Of a DNA stretch of 64,000 bases, positions 1-24,981 are shown in pieces. The DNA comes from Lobosporangium transversale (taxonomy: Eukaryota): NCBI RefSeq assembly GCF_002105155.1, contig NW_019028979.1, forward strand, positions 1-64,000, read 5' to 3'. Each line of letters starts with the position of its first letter. The first letter of the stretch is position 1. The notes beneath the pieces are model-generated. The model ran no database searches and was not told the origin of the DNA. It worked only from the letters and a program-made list of their open reading frames with translations. Position numbers and translations under genes: made by a program.

Positions 1-54
1 TTACAATTTTTTTAAGACGAAGGCCTTTCTGGACCTAGTCATGTTTTGTAGTAG
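1..54. repeat. Terminal inverted repeat at the 3' end of the Fanzor gene
   Basis: ttacaatttttttaagacgaaggcctttctggacctagtcatgttttgtagtag matches the reverse complement of 3325-3377. Confidence 0.93.
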
Positions 55-62
55 ATTGTGTC

Positions 63-2926
63 CTACTGCTGTTGCCGGCTTGTCTCTCCCCCTCCTCCTG
101 GACCCAGCAAAGGTCCTTTCGGTGGTCTTGATCCCTCTACTCCTCCTCCTCCTTCATCTGAAAATTTCCTTTTTGTGGGTCTGCTACTACCACCACCACT
201 GCCACCACTGCCACCACTACCTCCACCGCCGCCACTACCGCTAGAAGCTTGGCCTTGAGTTCCTCCGTCCGGCGGCATATATTTTGCAGGTCGTTTTTGC
301 TCTCTTATCTGCGACTCACAGACCCTTGCGATGTTCTCAGCATCAACAGCATCTTAATCAAAGTATGCTTTACAATTTCGACAGTACTTGGATCGAAAAG
401 GAACATTCTCCAATATACTGTCACAGTGAGGCCGTGGACACTTGGCAGATGTGTAGTATTCATGACAACCTACAATGGGGTAGTCTAGAGATTTTGCCTG
501 TTCGAGCCAGATTTAATACTCGTTAAAAAAAAGACTCAAAAATTAAATGTCATTAATCAAGGGAATTTTTTTTTTTTTTTTTTTTACCTTTTCAACAAGC
601 TTCTTCATCAATATCCCATGCTTCGATACTTGTCCTCGGTTTGTCTTGAATGATCCTCGTCCAATACAGATCACTGCATTCGTATTGGCATCTCTTCTTC
701 TTCCATTGCTTCCGCCCGCAAGCTTCAGAATTGCCTTGATCACATAATCAACGTATCCGTTCTGTGCTTTTCTATTATCCCAGCTATTCCGAACAAACCA
801 CCTGTCATTATAGAAATCGACAAGCGCCCTATATGTAGTCTCCCTATTGTCGTCACTGGTCTCAGATCCACTGCTACTACTGGCCTCAACTCCACTGCTA
901 CTACCGGTCCCTGCTCCACTGCTACTACTGGCCCAACCCCACTACCAGAGAAACTACCTCCAGTACTTGATGGAGCTTGATTTGGCAGCAAGCTCATATA
1001 GCGAAATACTGTGTTAAAGTAGGCCTGAGAATGACGGAATATTGCTTTCAATCTCTGTAATTCCTCTTCTAAGCTTTCGCCTCTCTAGCTCGACCCTGAA
1101 ACTTCTTGGATGGTTTGTAAAGGTACGCTCTAGAAATCCGGAGGATCTCACGTTCGTTAGGTTTCCTTGTATCCAACTTTGCAATTGTCATCGAGTACCT
1201 CTCGCCTGGATCGATCCCAATGATAATGGTACTTTCGGGGGGAGGGCATGCTGCCTGGGTGTCATATTTAACTTCTACATTCTCGAGGAGACGGGATCTC
1301 TGCTTCCAGTTGATCTCACGCCGGGAACTGGGACTCACCGGGGACAGTGGATTTGTGCTCGATGTACCTTCTTCAGCTGCTTCTTCTCCCTCGTCGCCAT
1401 CTAAGAATGGTTCATCAACTTCCAGCAAGTCAATATCGCTGATACCCAGCAAGATATCGTCATCTTCATTTCCGTCGTCGTCTCCATCATCACCACCATG
1501 GCCTGCACCATGGCCTGAAGACGAGGATCCCTGCTGAGCACTTGAAGAAGCCTGGACTGCTTGAGATCTTTGAGTATCCGAAGGTTGGGCAGCTTACGAA
1601 CCTCTACCTCTTTTTTGCTTCGATCTGTCATAGGCAAGAAGTGTTAGGGTAAGGCCGTTTGTAAAGAACGATGTCCGTAGTTTCCTTCTAGGGCTATCAT
1701 CAGATTGCAGTCCAACGTCCTTGTATCCTTTCAAGGAAAACAGCTCCTGCAACAATATCCCCTTGTGGTTAAGGATCTTGTCCTCTGCAGCCCCCTTGGT
1801 ACTCATGTTTAGTTCCAACAATTGGACTATTTCCTCTCGAACTGTTGGGTTAGACCATAATATATCCAGGAGACAGGCTTCCGTTAGGCAGAGAGACCGA
1901 GGCGAGAAAGCAGACGTAGGGAAATCCAGATATTTTTTGGCAGTTGCATTTTGCTCAAAAAAGAATTGGATGGAACTTCTTCCATTGCCTGGAATATCTA
2001 TGTCAAACTAGACATTATATTGAAGAAATGATTAGGAACATTTCTTTAAACATATTATATATTTACCTGCGCATTCCGATAGTGAGACCTTAGCGCTGCT
2101 TGAACAGGGACCATGACCATCCGAGACGACTTGCTGATCACCAAATCGGGATAGATCTGGTTTAAAGGACCAAGCCCTGTCTTTGCATAGAAGTTTCGTA
2201 TGCTTTGAGCTGGGACGGCTTGGCTACGTTCCCTTCGCCTTTTTTCTTCACTTCTCTGCTATACCTAGATAATGGACTCATCACTCCGTGATACAACAAC
2301 GCAGCAAGGCCGTAAATAAAGTCCCTGCTATCAAGAACTTCATCTAGGAGTTGTGGGAGATCAGCTGGATTGGATGGCCCAGTGGTAAGCAGGTTATCGA
2401 CCACAAGGCGCAGGCCCAGAAAGCTCAATCCGTGCCTCATTCAACATTTTAATAAATGATTGAATGAGCCCTTGAATTGTTGCAGCAAGTTGCTCGGGAT
2501 TGAGATTGGGATCGGAAGTAGAGTCCAGCTTGGCAACTACACACGTCTTTAACGTGCCCAGAGTTAATGCAGCAGTGGGTGGGCCCTCTTCAACCGTCGG
2601 TCCTCTGCAGTAGCCTCCTTCACTTTCCTGGTCTTATCAGTCTTTCTGATATACTTGGCCTTCCCTTTGTTCTTCTTTTTTTTCTTCTTTTCCTCCTTAA
2701 CCTCCTCTTCTTTCTCATCCTCTTTTTTTTCTTTTTCCTTTTTTTTGGGGGACTTTCTTTGACGGCTGGAGCTGACGGGACGGTCGTGTTGTTTGCAGTT
2801 GGTCAGGTCATATTTCTTAGGGGAAAGTTCCTTTTTCTGGGTAGGGAAAACAGGCCGATAGCGATTCGGCTTTGCGCGTTTAGGGATATAGAATCTAATT
2901 AGGAACAACAATGTCAAGGGTTAGAT

Positions 2927-2960
<34 letters not shown>

Positions 2961-3120
2961 TATATGCTTTGGAAAATGTTCATTTGAAGGAGCTTACCTG
3001 GATTGAGGTTGATTATTTTTATTCTGGTACCTAGCAGATATCGCAGTCCTCATTCTATCATGGTAATGAAGGAATCTTTCAGCGGTTGCTTGCTGCGAAG
3101 CCTGGGTTTGGATCCAGTTG
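63..3120 (-). pseudogene. Fanzor1 (TnpB-like RNA-guided RuvC endonuclease), spliced, disrupted by frameshifts and nonsense codons
   Basis: Stitched minus-strand translation gives SFFTNGLTLTLLAYD, RuvC-I IIIGIDPGE (D at 1210-1212), GITEIESNIPSF, LVDFYNDRWFVRNSWDNRKAQ, VICIGRGSF, RuvC-II VGCHEYYTSAK (E at 459-461), Zn finger CPRPHC...CRNC, and RuvC-III FD*DAVDAENI...RP (D at 351-353). GT-AG introns at 498-587, 2008-2066 and 2895-2997. Stops at 354-356 and 1594-1596. The 5' boundary is uncertain. Confidence 0.88.
867..938. repeat. 3 x 24-bp tandem repeat encoding an SSSSG linker inside Fanzor
   Basis: tccactgctactac(t/c)gg... repeated three times. Confidence 0.85.
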
Positions 3121-3324
3121 CATATTTCACAGTACACGTGTTATATGAAAATTTATAATACAGACATACTAACAGCTCTATGCCCCATGGTGCCCGAGAC
3201 AAACTTGCAGTTTTATTTTGATACAAATTTGGATAAATGTCCCATGGATGTGATGTGTGAACCCACATCCTATTCTCACTTCTGCTCCCTGGTTACTATT
3301 TGTCTGTCTAAAATTTTTCATGAG

Positions 3325-3377
3325 CTACTACAAACATGACTAGGTCGGGAAAGGCCTTCGTCTTGAAAAAGTTGTAA
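3325..3377. repeat. Terminal inverted repeat at the 5' end of the Fanzor gene
   Basis: ctactacaaacatgactaggtcgggaaaggccttcgtcttgaaaaagttgtaa, 49/54 identical to the reverse complement of 1-54. Confidence 0.93.
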
Positions 3378-4084
3378 GTATTAGCTTGACAGTGCTTTCT
3401 TGACTAATCTCTTTATTTCTATGCTTGGTCTAGATGGTGTTTTTTTATGGGGAGGACTATTTAGACAGCATATAGACCCCACATATCTTAATCATAATAA
3501 ATTGGTTTGGTGGCATTGTTGTAAAAAATATCTTTGCTTAAGGGACAGAAAGATAGACACAATCAGGAAAAGGCAGGACAAAGAGTGTCAACAAGATTGA
3601 CAAGAGAAAATAGAGTCAAATAACCTTGACTACAAACAGCGCCATAGAATGTCAAAAGAAAAGATAGGAGCTTTATAGGTGAGCTCACAAACTGAGTTAC
3701 CGGAAGACAAATGCTTGTTGTGAAAAGGGGAAAAAGATAAATGGCAAGACGAACTGCGGGTGAAGAATAAGACATGTGGGGAAAACTGAAGACTTTATTA
3801 AGAAGGAAGTTTCTTTGGCTTTTATACTCGGTAGTTTCTAGGTGAGGCGGACCCGCCTATGACTACAAAGGCTTTGCGCAAAGATTAAGCTGGTTCGACA
3901 GATTAGTGGATACAAAATAAACCGAAGTTAATTTTAATGACCAGTCACACCACTTGCAATAACAAGCGAGTCAATTGGCTGCCAATACATTTAAGAGTAT
4001 TCAAAAAATATAAGGGATCGCATTTAATAAAACTCGAATGTCCTTTTTTCTTTGCTGTTGCATTCATTCCAAAAAAGACAAACT

Positions 4085-4432
4085 ATGGAAGCACCCATCG
4101 ACTTGGACTTGTCTACTCTTAACGCCCTCTCCCCTGAGGTCATTTCGAAGCAAGCAACTATTAACATTGGTATGAAAATATTCTTATCTTTCTCTTTCCT
4201 ACTAATTAAGACACTCATACCAGCACTCTTTTTAACTTGTCTTTCTACGCAATTTAGGTACCATTGGCCATGTTGCTCACGGTAAATCTACTGTCGTCAA
4301 AGCTATCTCTGGTGTTCAGGTATACAACAAACAGCATTGACTGAACCAAGAAGTCAAGAAGGCGTGTCAAATTTTATCTGAGTGATCCGTCAACCGTCAA
4401 AAGGAGATTATTAACGTTACTGGTGCTTTTTC

Positions 4433-12091: not shown

Positions 12092-13627
12092 CTAATTGCC
12101 TCCCTGGTTCGCTTTCTGCTCCGCCAAACTCGGGCGCTGCAAAGCCGGGGGTAAAGTAGCAAACATGAGGTACGATGTGTGGCCACGCTGTTCCATAGGA
12201 AGCTTGGTAACAGTTATGTTTTGAGGATCAATTCTCTCCCTTGGCTCTGGTACTACATCAGCTTCTGTTGTTGATAATGACATAGTCGCTGATGTACTCT
12301 CTTCAGAATCTAATCCAGCTGTTGAAGTGGGGGTTGCAACAGTCGATGAAGTGTTACTGTCGTCAACAGATACCTCGGTCCTTGCGCTCTTGATCTTGGA
12401 GCTGACTTCCTCTTCTATATTTTCATCCTGTTCTTGGTCCTCCCCTTCATCTTGCTCCTGCTCCTGTTTTGCCTGCTCCCCTTCACGTTGTTCCCTCTTT
12501 TCCAGTTCCTTTTTGACATTCTCACGCAAGACTCGTGGTACGGCACGCTTCCTCTTCTTTTCAATGGCTCTCTGTTTCTCCATTGCTTCATCAATAGTCC
12601 ACATTGGAATGACACGGATCTCATTGAACCGGATCAAGCACTCGTACATCTGAATATCAACAAATCCATTCTCACTGAGTGAGGTAACTGTCCTGGAAAT
12701 TTGTTCAATGCAGGGCGAAAATGTACAAATCTTGCCAATTTTATCCTGCTTGAATGCCTTTTTAGCAGATGCAACAGCCTCCCAAGGTGCTGGAAGGTCC
12801 AAAAAAACTATTTCAACAAAATATTTAGCAGCCGGCAGAGAAAAGCTTTTTCTTTTTAGATCTGTGGCTCTGTAATAAACATTGGATTTTTTTTATTTCT
12901 ATTTTTTTGTTTTTTGTTTTTTTACCTGCATCAACCATGTTCTCCAGTCCAAATCCGTCTTTACAAACATCTCTGCATTCCACGGTGATCAAGTCCGATA
13001 ATTCATGCTGTGCAAATTCCTTTGTGGCCGCATTGGCGCGTTCTTGATGGTACTCGAACGTGTACAAATGCCCTGTTGGCGCTAGAGTACGAGCAATGGA
13101 ATGCGAGAACGATCCTGATCCTGTGCCTGACTCAATCATAGACATGCCCGGTCTCAAATTCAAAAAATTCATCACAAACGAGATATCTGCAATGTAAAGG
13201 ATCTGTGTACGATGAGGCAAGACCAAGGTCCAGAGTTCGGGTGTGGGGTATAAAAGGTAGAGGAATCCACGACCTGTACTGGAACCGAGCTTTGTCCCGT
13301 ACTCTAGGCCAATCATATCTGCGTGCTTGTATGTTCCAAATTTACAATTGAAATATTCTCCGTCTTGGACTCGAATGATGACCATATTTTCTTTGCTCTA
13401 GATGACCAACAAGTATCCAATAAAAAACATATATAAATAAACAGCCCAATAATCTCATGAACTCACTAGTTAGTCTTTACGATCTTGGTATAGCAATCAA
13501 AAGGTCAAATTTTTCTTACCAGATATACGACAACAAGGTCCCCCTCCTCAATGATATTATGAGCCTTATATCTGGCAAAGCTCTGTTTGACCACTGGTAC
13601 ATTCTTTTCTATACTGGATTCACTCAT
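12092..13627 (-). CDS. TRM61: tRNA (adenine58-N1)-methyltransferase catalytic subunit (3 exons)
   Basis: PTPELWTLVLPHRTQILY, ESGTGSGSFSH, TFEYHQERA, VFLDLPAPW, FSPCIEQ, GHTSYL. Confidence 0.96.
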
Positions 13628-13860
13628 ATTGTTGGTAATGATGAATGGAGTTGCTGATGGTATACAGTTATGAAGAATTGTTTTAGCCAAAGAGAAAGCA
13701 GTCTATTTGTTTTTTTTTTTATTTTTTTTTTTTTTTTTTTTAACAAATCTGCTACTTTGGACAAGTGGCTGAGTGCTTGAAAAAAAAAAAAAAAAAAAAA
13801 AAAAAAACTTTAACCACTCTCAACTTTTCACTTTACATTGTGGTTGACAACATAAAAAAC

Positions 13861-15120
13861 ATGGCCGATGCATATGCACGTCTCGACTTTCTCTGGAAAG
13901 CATCATATACACTACTCAGCACATGTCCAGGCGCATCTTCTCATTATATGGCTCAGTTCCTCGACCTTGCCAACGCCCGTGATTTGAAGCTACATGAAGA
14001 TATCCAAACCAAATCGTGTGCTGCCTGCGGATCTATCTTTGTGCCTGGAATCAATACTAAAGTCAGAGTTGTTCCTGTCCATGAGACACGCATCGAACGC
14101 GAACGACGGAAAAAGCAGGCTCGGAAAAGGGCAAAAAAGCAAAATATGTTGTTGAAAAGCAAGGATAATGATGAATCCTTTTTGGGTGCTGACAAACTGG
14201 CGACGACGAGGACGACGGTATCGACAGCAAAAGAGGAAACTATGAATTACCATCAAACCACAGCAACAATGGAGTATGATGAGGGAAAGGAAACGAAAAA
14301 ATCTATCAACGTCAACCTTGCTACAATAACAGCAACAACAAAAGTACTTCCTACATCCAATCCACAAAAGCAATCAAGCACACAACCTCAACAGTTGTTA
14401 CGCCCTCGAAAGATCATTCGCATCACCCCTCATACTGAAATCATTCAGCAACAACAACAAATGCAACAACAGTTGCGGCGCCAACTGATGGCAGATGGGA
14501 AGCCATCCAGAAAAATCGATAAGCGTGCAAATCAGGTTCTCAACCATATCATCTATTCTTGTCAAAGATGTAATAGAGATACAGAGCTTCGAGGAACAAA
14601 AGAAGGCTATTTGACTTCGCATATCAAAGCCAAGAAACTTGGGTCACAAAGACGCAAATTAAAGAATATGAAGCAGGATCTTGCTTCCACATCAGCTGAA
14701 GCAGCAATCGATTCAAAATCACAACCAATACAACCTGTGCCATCGACGCTCAAGTCAGGGCCTAATCTAGTAACGCATGCCACTGCAGTTGGCAAACGAT
14801 CAGCATCACCACTCCCTACCCACATACAACCCAATACCAAGCAATTTAAAAACGCTACATCATTGCCTCCCTCTCCTATTCGTGGACTATCAAAGGCTTC
14901 TTCTGCTGCGTCTTCAGCAGCGAGCTCGCCAGTATCATCCCCTCGTTTAGATAATGCCAAGTCAGGAGGCAGTAGTGGCAGCAGTAGCAAAAAGAAAAAG
15001 AAAGGAGGGCTGGCAAGTATTTTGGCTAGTCAGAAAGCAAAGGATCCTCCTCCTGACCCTAATGATGGCGCAGGATCTAGTGGAGATAGCTCACTAGCCA
15101 ATTTCCTCATGGGATTATAG
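13861..15120 (+). CDS. Rpr2/Rpp21/Snm1-family RNase P/MRP subunit with long insertions
   Basis: ARLDFLWKAS N-terminus, CAACGSIFVPG, second CxxC (YSCQRC), Lys/Ser-rich tail; single exon. Confidence 0.8.
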   Translation: MADAYARLDFLWKASYTLLSTCPGASSHYMAQFLDLANARDLKLHEDIQTKSCAACGSIFVPGINTKVRVVPVHETRIERERRKKQARKRAKKQNMLLKSKDNDESFLGADKLATTRTTVSTAKEETMNYHQTTATMEYDEGKETKKSINVNLATITATTKVLPTSNPQKQSSTQPQQLLRPRKIIRITPHTEIIQQQQQMQQQLRRQLMADGKPSRKIDKRANQVLNHIIYSCQRCNRDTELRGTKEGYLTSHIKAKKLGSQRRKLKNMKQDLASTSAEAAIDSKSQPIQPVPSTLKSGPNLVTHATAVGKRSASPLPTHIQPNTKQFKNATSLPPSPIRGLSKASSAASSAASSPVSSPRLDNAKSGGSSGSSSKKKKKGGLASILASQKAKDPPPDPNDGAGSSGDSSLANFLMGL

Positions 15121-15228
15121 GCTATGTCATCATGTAAAACACTTAATAAAAAATTGCTATTTTTTTACTTTATTTTTTTTATTGATTATTACTTCTGGCA
15201 TAAGAGTAAAAATGATGGTGTTATTTGT

Positions 15229-15252
15229 TTATGGGAATGCACGGCCAGTGAA

Positions 15253-15290
<38 letters not shown>

Positions 15291-17729
15291 TGAAAAATGA
15301 ACGATACCATATTATTAGAAGGGTATCTGACAATAACGTGGAGATCCATTGATCTTATTTTTTTCCTCCCTTCTTACCTTGGGTACAAGCAGGTGTCGCG
15401 AACGGTATAGAGGTTGAGCATCCAGGCAATATAGCGTTCGATTCCCAAACCAAATCCACCGTGCTCACTAGTACCAAACTTGCGTTGATCAGTGAACCAG
15501 TAGTAAGGGGAGGGATCAAGACCCTCGCGCTTATATGCAGCCATGAGCTCCTCCAAATCAGAGATACGCATCGATCCTCCGACAATCTCTCCAACACCGG
15601 GCATCAAGACGTCAACACTCTCGGTCAATGCACGGTTCTCAGGGCAACGCTTCATGTAGAACGCCTTGATCTCTGCAGGGAAGCGGCACAACAAGATAGG
15701 GCGATTGATCTTGTCTGTCATAGCACGCTCAGGAGCCTCAGGGATATCTTCGCCAACTTCATAGAAAGTGCCATCTTCCTTCTTGATGTCGTTATCCTTC
15801 AAATACTTTATAGCGTCAGAGTAGTCCATGCGCATAAATGGACGTTCGGGTCTCTTAAAATCTGGGTTAAGCTTGTAGACAATATCAGCAGTCGGTTTGT
15901 GGGCTAATGTGCGGTCAATGACATCACAAATCATATCCTCGATCTGATCCAATAGATCATCGAAGGAAATGAAAGCCATCTCAGCTTCACAGTGAGTGTA
16001 TTCCGACAAATGGCGACGGGTGTGAGACTTCTCTGCACGGAAAGATTCAGCTAAGCAGTAGACATCTCCCAATGAAGGCAAGCAGGTTTCCAAGTAAAGC
16101 TGGGAAGACTGAGTCAAGTAAGCCTTTTTTTATGGTGTAAGAAAAGAAAGAAAAAAAGGTTAGATTACAATCTCACTGACCCGAGACTTTCCAAACTATT
16201 TTTCTTGTATATTGTAAAATAACATACCTTCTCATTATAGTAGTTAAGCTCAAATAGAGTTGAACCACCCTCGACTGAGGTCTGGACCATGCAAGGAGGA
16301 GTGACTTCATAGAATCCACGGCTATCAAAATGGTCACGGAAAGCCTTCAGGACTTGAGAACGAACCTTCAAAATGCCCGACGCTCTCTCCTCACGCAAAA
16401 CTAAGTGACGAAGATCATACTTGACGGAAGGATCAGAGTTCTCGTTGACCTTGTTGCTGATAGCATCGTCACCACCGGGCGCCTTTCCAATGCATTCCCA
16501 GTAGTCAACAGTCAACTCATGGTTATCAGGTGCCTAATCAATAATTAAAATATTAAATGAAAAGAGTTGTTAGCAATTTAGTGTATCTCTCTTCCTCACC
16601 GACGGAAAATGAAATAATATAAAATAAAATAAAACTTACAGTCTTTCCAGCAGGGAGCTCGTTAATGACACCATACACGATGATAGTAGACTCGAGGGTG
16701 AGAGTAAGTGCATCGTATGTTTGGCACTTATGTTGGATTCAATCAAAATTAATAATTGTCAGCTATACATTATTTTCAATCGACATAGGAAAATACAAAA
16801 AAAGTTTTTCTTTTCCTTCACTTACGAGGTTATCGGTGAGAACGCATTGAAGGTAACCAGTACCATCTCTCAAAATTACAAACATCATGTTCTTTCCTTG
16901 AACGCGAAGGCGATGAACCCATCCTGAAACCTTAACACGCTTTCCTCTGTTATCAACACCGTTTCTAATCTTAATCTTGGTTGCAATCGGCAGGGAAGGA
17001 TCCTCCTTAAGGACAACCTTCTTGGCGGCTTCCAAAACACGCTCACGTTCCTCAGCAGCAGCCTGATCTTTGGCAGCTTGTTCTGCAGCCTGTTCAGCCA
17101 ACTTCTTGTTTTTCTTTTCCAGCTCGGCTACTTTCTTAATGGCCTTCTTCTGTGCAGCTCCAGAGATAGGGACAAAGCCAGAGGTCTCGCCTTCAGCAGT
17201 AGCAGCCTTCCAGACTTGAATCTTGACAGATTCGCCGTGGGCCTGAATGGCCTTGACAGCGGATTGATAAGGAGCTTCAATGGAACCATTGCCGGCTTCA
17301 TCAGAGCCCTTGGTCTCGTCGACATGAGCGACGACTAAGCCCACAACCAAAGAGCAGAAAGCAAAACAAGAGCAGAACAGCGAAATATGGATTAACAATT
17401 GATCATTTCGGAAAGGTTTAAAATAACACCATACCACACCCAACCAAGGTCTAGTGACTTCAATTGATCCAAATTAAATTGATACCAGTGAGCCCTAAAT
17501 TCCTCTTCAATATGTTGTCCCCCTTTTTTCTAAGGGCAAAAGCCTTCCTGCCCTGAGTGGCAATAGTCAATAGCTCTTTTGACAAAAAACTACAAAAATA
17601 AAATGTTTTAAAATAATATGTTCTGTGCTTCCTTTTTTCTCTTTTTTTTTTCTCATGGCTCCATGAAGTATAAATGAATGAATTACCAGCAGCAATAGAG
17701 AGTGAATCGACAGGTAATGTGTCAGCCAT
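15229..17729 (-). CDS. DED81: Cytosolic asparaginyl-tRNA synthetase (multi-exon)
   Basis: GWVHRLR...[71 protein letters not shown]. Confidence 0.97.
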
Positions 17730-22418: not shown

Positions 22419-24172
22419 TCATTCTGGAAGTAAGCGGAGCGTTGGCTTCAATAATGCCCTGTTGAAATGCATGCGAGGACCCTGTGTTGTAGGAATAGTA
22501 GTCTTAATCCACTGACGTACAAAGTACAGACGCGCCAACAGTTGTGTAATAGAGTCTTCGTTCCCAATAGTAGAGGAAAGGGTAATGCCGGTGTAGACTT
22601 TGTATAAATATTCATGATTGACCATCCTCATGAGGGAAATCTCTACTTCTCTACCAACAACAAAGAATCCGATGACGGCGAATTCATCCTCACTCTGTGC
22701 TTGAATGATACGCTCATGAAGGGCTCGTTTCATGAACTCTGCTATCCTAGCACGATCATCATCGATGGAGGCTCTTGACGCTGAAAACGGCTTAATCTCA
22801 CCGCAACCAACTGGGACGCCTTTATGGGTTAAAACGATGTCAGGTCTCTCTAAGCTACTTCCATTGAGCCTCGTATCCCTTATACATTCATGAGAAATGG
22901 CTTATTGATCAGGAAAATGGATTGAACTCAATAAGCAAACTGCAAGATGCACACCTGTAGTCATTGCATTTCATACCACTTGATAGAGAAACCTTCGTGG
23001 GTATTAAAGATCGTGTCCCAAATGGTACAGACATGGTGGATAATAAAGTTCATTTCTTGATTCTTTGATCTACAGCAGGCTTCTGAAGTGCTAGGGCCAT
23101 GCGACTGAGAAAGGCAAGACAAAATAGTGTATATTTCGAGCTCCATATCATTAGTCGCGCGAGGAAAATAATATCGTTTCCCTTCGTCTTGAGCCACTAA
23201 AAAAGTGTCAATAGCATCCCTGCATGAATTCGGAAGCTGATAACGGATAGATCTAGGAAATGCCTCATGCTGGTCTACAACTTGAATTGATGACAGCAAC
23301 CTACATAGAGACCCATCCAATAATTAGTGTCAAAACAAAAATTTGCCATTTGCCATTTTTAGGCGAACGCAACAGTCAAAGTCATGACATTTTTGTTTTG
23401 ATATTTGAAGGGCACATTGATACACTAAATTAAACTAGAGGTCTTTTTTCTTTTTCTTTTTCTTTTTCTTTTTCTTTTTTTTTTTTTTTTAACTTGTAAT
23501 CTATCGGTTGGCCAATTCTTACCATCGCTCTTCTAAACTGGCAAAGTTGTCAAGAATGTGTACTCTTCTCTCCACGCCTGTATGAGATACACCCGTTAAT
23601 TCATTCATATCCAATACAAACCGCTCACGCTCGATCAAATATTCTTCTGGAGGGTCGGGCGATAAAGTCGGAGGTTCATAAAAGGATTGAGAGGATAGCG
23701 GTTCATCGTCATCAGAATGTAAAGAAGATGTCGCGCCGGCATATGAAGGGGGAGCGTCTTCTGAAACACCTGGACCTGGGAAGCCAACAACAGAGGACGG
23801 CATTCGTAAAGTGTTGTCGATTTCATTATTGCTACTGCTTGCTTGCTCCCGAATTAGCTTTTTTGCGATATGTTCACCTCCTAAAGCCAATTCTTTTGCT
23901 GTTCTCTTTGTAGAGATTGATACCTGTGCTGAAACTGCCACAGAAGCCCAATACTCATCTCCATTGTTGCGTTGCCAAACGTCATAGTCTGATTGCAAAC
24001 GCGTTCGTATTCGCTTAGAAATGTCTGTTACAGAAATTAGGGCGGAAAATGCGGCATGTGCATCTTTTTCAATAGTAAAGTTAAACGCTTCGTTGAAACT
24101 AGGCATTGTGATCGATTCTTGGTTCTTGAGCCTCTCTAAGAGCCACTGGAGAGGCGTAGTTGTACTCCCCAT
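22419..24172 (-). CDS. PD-(D/E)XK restriction-endonuclease-like domain protein (3 exons)
   Basis: Exons about 24172-23523, 23300-22977 and 22878-22419 splice in frame. The last exon reads WDTRLNGSSLERPDIVLTHKGVPVGCGEIKPF...DRARIAEFMK. Confidence 0.7.
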
Positions 24173-24981
24173 TGTCAAGTAGGCTCTATTTTGAAGGCAC
24201 CACATGAGGAAAGAACCTCAAGCATGTTCAGTATTATGTCTTCGGGCCAAGTTTCAAATAAACAAAAAAAAAAAAAAAAAAAAAAAAACCAGCTCTTTAA
24301 CATATAGAAAGGACAGAGTTTTTATTGCCAATTTAAAAAAAAAAAAAAAAAAAAAAAAAGTCTACACTCTTCTCTCCGCCTCTCTGCTGCTGCATAGCAC
24401 CTAGACAGAGAACCTAAGAAAGAACCAGTGTATATTGTCAGTATGCTTTAAGCTCGACTTGACAAGTTATTCAGTGATCATCTAGTTTATATCCTGCTGC
24501 ATTCTTCTTTCCGCCCTCCTGCCGCTGCACAGAGCACCTGAGCAGGAGACCTAAGAAAGAACCAATACATGATAGCAGAGTTTGACTAAATGCCAAGAAT
24601 CGAGTCAAAGGTGTCAGATACTATATGTATCTCTATTTTTCTTTTCATTTGACCAGCATCTAAGGTGGAGTGAAATTACAATGAATGAAAGATAAAAAGA
24701 TTGAAAAGTTTCTTATTTTCGTATGTGTGTTAGAAAGCTATAAAGACGTAGAATGATAAAGTGATGGTGATGGTCTTTGACCACTAAAAATAAAAATGAA
24801 AAACCAGGTCTACGTAATTTGAGCAAAATAAGAATAATTAAAAAATTCACAACCTCTTCAAAGTAAAATGTGCAAAAAAATTTTACAAGATAAAAAGTGC
24901 TTACAAAAAAATATCCGCGGTTTGTATATAAAAATATATTAGAGCATGCATGCACATGCATTTCACTTTCTTTCTCTCTCT

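Follow-up and report, generated by a model that had tools for sequence, protein, structure and literature searches.

A decayed Fanzor1 gene at the left edge of the window

The stretch analysed here, 64,000 nucleotides of Lobosporangium transversale DNA (assembly GCF_002105155.1, contig NW_019028979.1, positions 1 to 64,000; the window in what follows), begins with a 4-kb copy of a repeated element that carries, on the minus strand, the broken gene of a Fanzor1 RNA-guided nuclease. With a probability of about 0.75 we take it to be a dead, internally deleted copy of a multi-copy L. transversale Fanzor1 element, the full frame of which likely begins with a FEN1/EXO1-type 5′ nuclease with a predicted role in homing. 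The parts of the locus, with alignments made to the sister protein P0012, are the following.

1..54, no strand: arm of the inverted repeat, at the gene's 3′ end; 49 of 54 positions match 3325-3377; it reaches the window edge
63..497, minus: last exon, with RuvC-II E, C4 zinc finger, RuvC-III, Gly-rich tail and stop codon 65-63
464-447, minus: RuvC-II motif HEYYTS, catalytic E at 461-459
440-372, minus: C4 zinc finger, CPRPHC 440-423 and CRNC 383-372
362-333, minus: RuvC-III, FD*DAVDAEN, with the stop 356-354 directly before D 353-351
498..587, minus: GT-AG intron of 90 nt, the removal of which gives a gap-free alignment to P0012
588..2007, minus: exon with the remainder of REC/WED, an acidic low-complexity insert, RuvC-I and the bridge/REC2 helices, as placed by the AlphaFold2 (AF2) model of P0012; it holds a stop at 1596-1594 and four frameshifts
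1218-1204, minus: RuvC-I motif GIDPG, D at 1212-1210
2008..2066, minus: GT-AG intron of 59 nt, skipped in a contig of sequencing run X7
2067..2894, minus: exon for the basic linker and the first part of the Fanzor WED/REC lobe; four frameshifts by alignment to P0012
2895..2997, minus: GT-AG intron of 103 nt, phase 2, skipped in X7 contig 28
2998..3115, minus: remnant of the FEN1/XPG-type nuclease exon, its last 38 or so residues, matched by nuclease profile A6 and by the relative P0066
3115..3116, no strand: deletion junction, at which 906 nt or more of internal sequence are missing against sister copies, with loose contig ends on both sides
3116..3536, minus: family-wide 5′ region, likely 5′ untranslated, containing the second inverted-repeat arm and covered by unbranched high-depth contigs
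3325..3377, no strand: second arm of the inverted repeat, lying internally, 640 bp or more from the right boundary of the repeat
3537..3700, minus: GT-AG intron of 164 nt, the fourth, lying upstream of the coding region; skipped in an X7 contig, with its ends checked
3701..4021, minus: 5′ end module; other copies run on past 4021 with common letters missing here

An 85-residue piece of the window frame is 100% identical to BCR41DRAFT_417737, a gene model of L. transversale (Mortierellaceae), and the same Fanzor family includes 11 more models that share its locus-tag prefix; the six L. transversale family models that were aligned with P0012 are 94-98% identical to it. P0012 is XP_021884711.1, an FZ1 row in Supplementary Table 1 of Saito 2023 (PMC10432273), and the window copy is a dead member of this already catalogued Fanzor1 clade: its spliced frame shares 782 of 812 codons with P0012 (96.3%), but it is dead because of eight frameshifts and two stops, one of which (356-354) sits in place of the Arg of the RD motif. 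An earlier note, made from the DNA letters alone, had read this same frameshifted minus-strand frame across three GT-AG introns (2997-2895, 2066-2008 and 587-498), a reading that we retain. Its expectation of a lineage family with intact sisters is borne out in that the triad is intact in five of the ten L. transversale models checked, and fails in that the family was not new.

Sequencing contigs of four runs were aligned to 1-4200 and those of two runs to 3270-4110; the results given here hold among the contigs listed, and contig depth is a rough guide rather than a copy number. Family contigs carry an alternative letter at both window stops and at all eight frameshift sites. Contigs of X7 skip 2997-2895, 2066-2008 and 3700-3537 on the strand of the gene, and the first two of these are not skipped in three DNA runs. 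That X7 is an RNA run is a guess based solely on the spliced joints missing from the three DNA runs, no run being recorded as RNA, and since its contigs carry family alleles they do not show expression of the window copy. Intron 587-498 is absent from the listed contig splice joints. A form that skips 304 bases (1297-1602, with CT..AC ends) is present in DNA runs X3 and X5 and lacks most of the acidic insert; it is either a deletion derivative or an intron-like loss. Decay resembling repeat-induced point mutation (RIP) is unsupported, as C>T or G>A make up 13 of the 24 listed family-to-window changes, with five of these at CpG.

Identification as Fanzor1

The assignment of the gene to Fanzor1, already made in the earlier note, is supported by the profile and predicted fold of its relatives. 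A DPG in RuvC-I is a mark of Fanzor1 (Yoon 2023, PMC10711439) and is present as GIDPG. The catalytic E lies six residues upstream of the C4 zinc finger (E 461-459, first Cys 440), and the D of the RD motif (353-351) is present, its R being intact in 8/10 of the L. transversale models checked; DPG, E, zinc finger and RD are all kept in 5/10. Thus the D of GIDPG, the E of HEYYTS, the D of FD*D and the zinc finger lie where they had been placed from the letters. Pfam Cas12f1-like_TNB matches the last exon at E 0.0055 and P0012 at 7.6e-8.

A 56-sequence profile led by P0012 matched SpuFz1 at E 1.3e-10 and the mimivirus Fanzor2 at 4.1e-6. The alignment places the E and the RD-motif D of the window family on E541 and D606 of SpuFz1, 65 residues apart, so that two members of the triad fall on catalytic positions; the RuvC-I D is outside the displayed SpuFz1 stretch and is assigned from the DPG motif and the fold. 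Profiles were needed for such matches, as searches of the PDB with single sequences gave either no match or noise from the Gly-rich linker. In the AF2 model of P0012 (pLDDT, the predicted score of the local distance difference test, 77; predicted template modelling score, pTM, 0.74) the fold is that of a Fanzor1. Fanzor1 structures took the top seven rows in Foldseek (best E 2.9e-11), the comparison that the earlier note had proposed, ahead of Cas12f/TnpB and Fanzor2, and also the top seven rows in VIA (Z 19.2-14.2), with PpFz at Z 19.2 (root-mean-square deviation 4.1, 470 residues aligned), SpuFz at 16.5 and GtFz at 14.2. Scores were lower against TnpB 8H1J (Z 11.2) and Fanzor2 9B0L (Z 10.2), and this ranking argues for a Fanzor1 fold with an enlarged REC, nearer to Fz1 than to Fz2 or TnpB. 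A metagenome scan with P0012 gave 592 pattern matches and a scan of viral contigs with profile A4 gave 69, none of which was confirmed in either case; a viral source is therefore without support.

Extent of the element

The inverted repeat pairs 1-54 with 3325-3377 with one gap (E 6e-14 within the window) and has no further copy within the window. The earlier note had taken it for the two ends of a complete transposon with terminal inverted repeats (TIRs) at 1-3377. The 91% match over 54 bp would suit such an element, non-autonomous and with a stand-alone Fanzor1, and SPu-1 shows such a layout (PMC3627910). The repeat is there, but its arms are not the two termini. High-depth contigs cross 3377 without branching (X3 3115-3528, depth 193; X5 3117-3709, depth 2601), and high depth persists to 4021 before it drops (X5 contig 3992-4200, depth 103). 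Past 4021 at least six X3 and at least three X7 contigs go on with common letters (agreement 0.75 and 0.72, respectively) that occur nowhere in the window. Because family sequence runs unbroken past 3377 to at least 4021, the right arm must be internal, and because other copies continue past 4021 the window copy ends short of the 5′ end of the family. At the left end, bases 1-7, the contigs diverge into three or more continuations, and the left arm abuts the window edge. At least 906 nt are moreover missing at 3115, where a nuclease tail is kept upstream of the Fanzor lobe. An element with defined ends at 1 and 3377 is thus very improbable, and we prefer a longer element that is internally deleted in this copy.

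Arm 1..54 occupies the place where the scaffold of a Fanzor omega-RNA would be expected; its folding is not significant (z about -1.6 by a rough shuffle) and no Rfam family matched the region. By analogy with SpuFz1 the omega-RNA would span the 3′ end, at base 1 or to its left.

Some further observations concern the 5′ region. Within it the 3′ end of the gene recurs in inverted orientation as two blocks, 210 bases apart: one is 3325-3377, and the other, which resembles 55-85 reversed, belongs to the deleted part. A transcript with its start above 3701 would include the complement of its own predicted omega-RNA region. The segment 3960-4021 is matched by many more contigs than the remainder (X3 depth 945-1433 against about 200), with differing upstream letters, and is an end module common to several repeat families. 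A derivative that skips 517 bases (3460-3978) has single-copy depth in the DNA runs and is the deepest joint in X7 (458); it is possibly a strongly expressed ghost copy. A presumed likeness of two loose-end motifs to Mariner/Stowaway ends was dropped as evidence.

An N-terminal FEN1/XPG-type nuclease in the relatives

The most interesting feature of the lineage, overlooked in the earlier note, is an N-terminal nuclease of the FEN1/XPG type. Relatives found with P0012 carry about 300 additional N-terminal residues. Of the 35 PDB rows retrieved by a profile of 20 such domains (A6), 31 are RAD2, XPG, EXO1 or FEN1 (best E 5.6e-6) and the remaining four are Vav at E 0.095 or worse. The AF2 model of the P0066 nuclease domain (pLDDT 93) matches FEN1/EXO1 at E 1.8e-9 with a template modelling score of 0.62-0.64, every listed structural match belongs to the FEN1/EXO1 superfamily, and the predicted fold comprises a PIN-like core, a helical arch and an H3TH. 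Seven acidic positions, which we take to map onto those of human FEN1, are conserved in 12/13, 15/17, 19/20, 19/20, 20/20, 20/20 and 18/18 rows, as is the Arg of the arch. Pfam XPG_I is found in five of the 20 members (best E 6e-4), under the Pfam cut-offs, and Pfam left the N-terminal domain of single fusion proteins unnamed. The alignment A5, of 144 fragments, was badly aligned and was left out.

The relative P0022 is a single chain of 1,183 residues with both catalytic sets intact, and a phmmer search with it found 832 representatives at E 0.001 or better. Among 167 stored proteins the nuclease domain is present in 58, RuvC in 96 and both in 21, including all 14 of the proteins with at least 1000 residues. 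Single-chain nuclease-Fanzor proteins are thus shown to recur across the Mortierellaceae, the named hosts being Benniella, Mortierella, Entomortierella, Linnemannia and Dissophora. By eye, similar N-terminal motifs can be seen in rows of the Saito table from Podila, Actinomortierella, Lunasporangiospora and the basidiomycete Tilletiopsis. Across 14 fusions (88 pairs), pairwise identity in one domain varies together with that in the other (rho 0.62, Mantel p 2e-4, median identity 27-29%); this shows that the two have long been inherited together and that the fusion is stable, not that they cooperate.

The deletion at 3115 and the retained nuclease tail

What the window copy retains of this domain is its tail. 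Loose contig ends lie on both sides of 3115 in runs X2, X3 and X5, and an internal segment is therefore missing there. X7 contig 28 runs through 906 further letters before it reaches the window and, with 2997-2895 spliced out, joins the Fanzor exon; 906 nt is about the 300 codons that the nuclease domain requires. The best window match of A6 spans positions 299-336 of its 338, at 3116-3003 (iE 0.016), and begins at the deletion junction, so that the FEN1/XPG catalytic core is not found in the window copy. P0066 is 47% identical to the remnant (E 2.5e-6), and remnant and linker form one open frame of 148 codons from 3113. In P0171, from Mortierella sp. AD010, nuclease, linker and Fanzor start lie in one chain, the part after its nuclease domain matching window 2896-2261 (40% identity, E 1e-40). 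In the relative L001, a metagenome locus, a phase-2 intron likewise follows immediately on the nuclease exon, in the position that it has in the window copy. Hand translation of the 30 loose letters behind 3115, in the phase of the window, yields nine residues, and at five of them the last nuclease helix of P0171 has the same residue. Judged from these sequences, the segment that is missing here and present in the sisters is very likely the body of the nuclease. An ATG at 3188 was considered as the nuclease start and is unsupported, there being no tblastn match upstream of 3115.

Several points weigh against this interpretation. Only 30 letters of the missing segment have been read, and no listed contig joins the two loose ends or spans the junction of the window at 3115; the deletion could therefore be an assembly fault, with 3116-4021 a separate repeat. 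The nuclease domain is in none of the fetched NCBI models of the close (90% or more) family and P0012 begins in a shifted frame, so that they show no intact sister of full length. Sites have decayed in several relatives, among them the modelled P0066, with N and V at two of the acidic positions, and the count of 21 proteins with both domains comes from a search whose query contained both, many of the matches being fragments. Shared descent alone predicts the co-variation of the domains. Finally, seven of the eight frameshifts are losses of one base, many within short runs, and resemble long-read errors.

A rival view is that the locus is composite, a 5′-truncated Fanzor copy (1-3115) lying beside a distinct ghost-like repeat (3116-4021) in which a piece of the Fanzor 3′ end stands inverted; that no listed contig joins the two loose ends would suit this. 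The loose letters before 3115 do resemble the reverse of window 55-85, the last codons of the gene, and in X3 the segment 2058-2920 reaches about 0.6 of the depth of 3115-3528. However, intron 3700-3537 is in the orientation of the gene, L001 and L002 have an acceptor-like TAG immediately before the nuclease ATG, and the X3 depths of the 5′ module (193) and of the 3′ part of the gene (196-199) are alike, as would be expected of the two ends of one often internally deleted element. We consider a composite locus unlikely and continue with a single deleted element.

Predicted mechanism and mobility

In Fanzor1 systems an RNA from the 3′ end of the element and its flank guides the RuvC cut (PMC10432273, PMC13565253), and homing into emptied sites, demonstrated for TnpB and IscB, has been proposed for Fanzor (PMC13565253).

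Enzymes of the FEN1/EXO1 type trim 5′ flaps and resect 5′ ends. In an intact fusion protein the Fanzor RuvC would cut DNA at the RNA-specified site, the fused domain would resect the 5′ ends of the break or remove flaps, and the trimmed ends would bias repair towards copying of the element into the cut site. Guided cleavage, 5′ flap and 5′-3′ exonuclease activities are all predicted from sequence and model. We tentatively propose, at slightly less than even odds, that the fusion serves to home the element into empty sites, its tethered nuclease resecting ends or removing flaps. The age and stability of a fusion to a 5′ end-processing nuclease suggest homology-directed homing; having both active sites in one protein makes the idea testable with two active-site mutants, and intact-looking single-chain relatives such as P0022 are ready for such testing. 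The fusion would be a natural counterpart of the nuclease-exonuclease fusions built into engineered editors.

No transposase frame was seen in the 4-kb copy or in the fusion chains scanned, and new insertions therefore likely depend on an enzyme supplied in trans. It could instead be that the two-nuclease protein mobilises the element itself, a guided RuvC cut, flap or 5′ processing and host repair together reaching new sites with no transposase. Besides the missing transposase frame, the age and stability of the fusion, the non-terminal inverted repeats and the fact that the 906 nt known to be missing are about what the nuclease alone requires would all suit this. Against it, known Fanzor1 elements without a transposase of their own have been interpreted as non-autonomous (PMC3627910, PMC10432273), and a guide derived from the flank targets only sequences resembling the current flank. 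The deleted part may also exceed 906 nt, and a trans-acting transposase could lie elsewhere in the genome, which was outside the search. Self-mobilisation by the fusion thus seems improbable, and a transposase acting in trans is preferred. A still broader proposal, that there is a widespread fungal class of transposase-free mobile elements spread by one two-headed enzyme, in which Fanzor1 opens the target, the FEN1/EXO1-type nuclease resects ends or resolves flaps and the element is copied in, is speculative and rather unlikely; if true, it would amount to a natural RNA-guided cut-and-resect editor.

Comparison with known systems

SpuFz1, PpFz1 and GtFz1 resemble the L. transversale family in the DPG of RuvC-I, the relocated E before the C4 zinc finger, the RD motif and the presence of introns, and the Fanzor1 fold is common to SpuFz, PpFz, GtFz and the P0012 model (Z 14-19 over about 470 residues). 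The window copy is 96% identical to the catalogued XP_021884711.1 but is dead. To the Fanzor1 plan this lineage adds the N-terminal FEN1/XPG-type nuclease and a basic linker, giving fusion chains of about 1,150-1,300 residues compared with 600-700 for most Fz1 (Xu 2024, PMC11423790), and it has TNG where the WED motif named by Yoon 2023 is TDG (PMC10711439). Fold and seven acidic active-site positions of the relatives' N-terminal domain are as in FEN1, EXO1 and XPG (Rad2), from which it differs in being only 12-14% identical and in being fused to an RNA-guided nuclease within a repeat; the window keeps about 38 residues of it.

Amongst described elements, SPu-1 and the ghost loci of Spizellomyces punctatus are likewise multi-copy, with no transposase of their own seen and with deleted derivatives (PMC3627910, PMC10432273). 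SPu-1 and the L. transversale element both have an inverted repeat beside the stop codon, but the terminal repeats of SPu-1 are 30-33 bp (PMC3627910), whereas the 5′ arm in L. transversale lies in the spliced 5′ region, 640 bp or more within the element. MCi-2 and MCi-5 of Mucor circinelloides are also fungal Fanzor1 elements that fit no superfamily and are without true terminal repeats; they have pieces of Crypton or Harbinger transposases, of which none was seen in the frames present here, and defined target-site duplications (PMC3627910).

Full-text literature searches found no description of a nuclease-Fanzor fusion, subscription papers, Repbase and bioRxiv supplements being outside their reach. 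It is undescribed in the passages covered of PMC3627910, PMC10432273, PMC10711439, PMC11423790 and PMC13565253, and likewise in those of Jiang 2023 (PMC10530073), Altae-Tran 2023 (PMC10691335), PMC5499597 and PMC10799480. Fused sequences sit in the tables of Saito 2023 (PMC10432273) and Yoon 2023 (PMC10711439), unremarked in the text searched. The fusion is thus apparently undescribed, while the Fanzor1 clade itself is already catalogued.

Neighbouring genes and other features of the window

The 5′ module of the element ends at 4021, and 63 bases separate it from the start codon (ATG at 4085) of an oppositely oriented gene for a translation GTPase (Pfam GTP_EFTU), which presumably resembles eIF2-gamma. 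With so small a gap the element lies head to head with this gene, in or beside its promoter. Two frames at 22419-24217 (minus strand) have no Pfam match; one of them has by eye what we take to be a PD-(D/E)xK-like motif, and the pair is possibly a lineage-specific nuclease or effector-like gene. A DUF4326 protein is encoded at 50957-51472 (minus strand, E 2e-25), and a housekeeping cluster at 12092-17473 comprises a GCD14 tRNA methyltransferase subunit, an Rpr2 RNase P subunit and a class II (D/K/N) tRNA synthetase.

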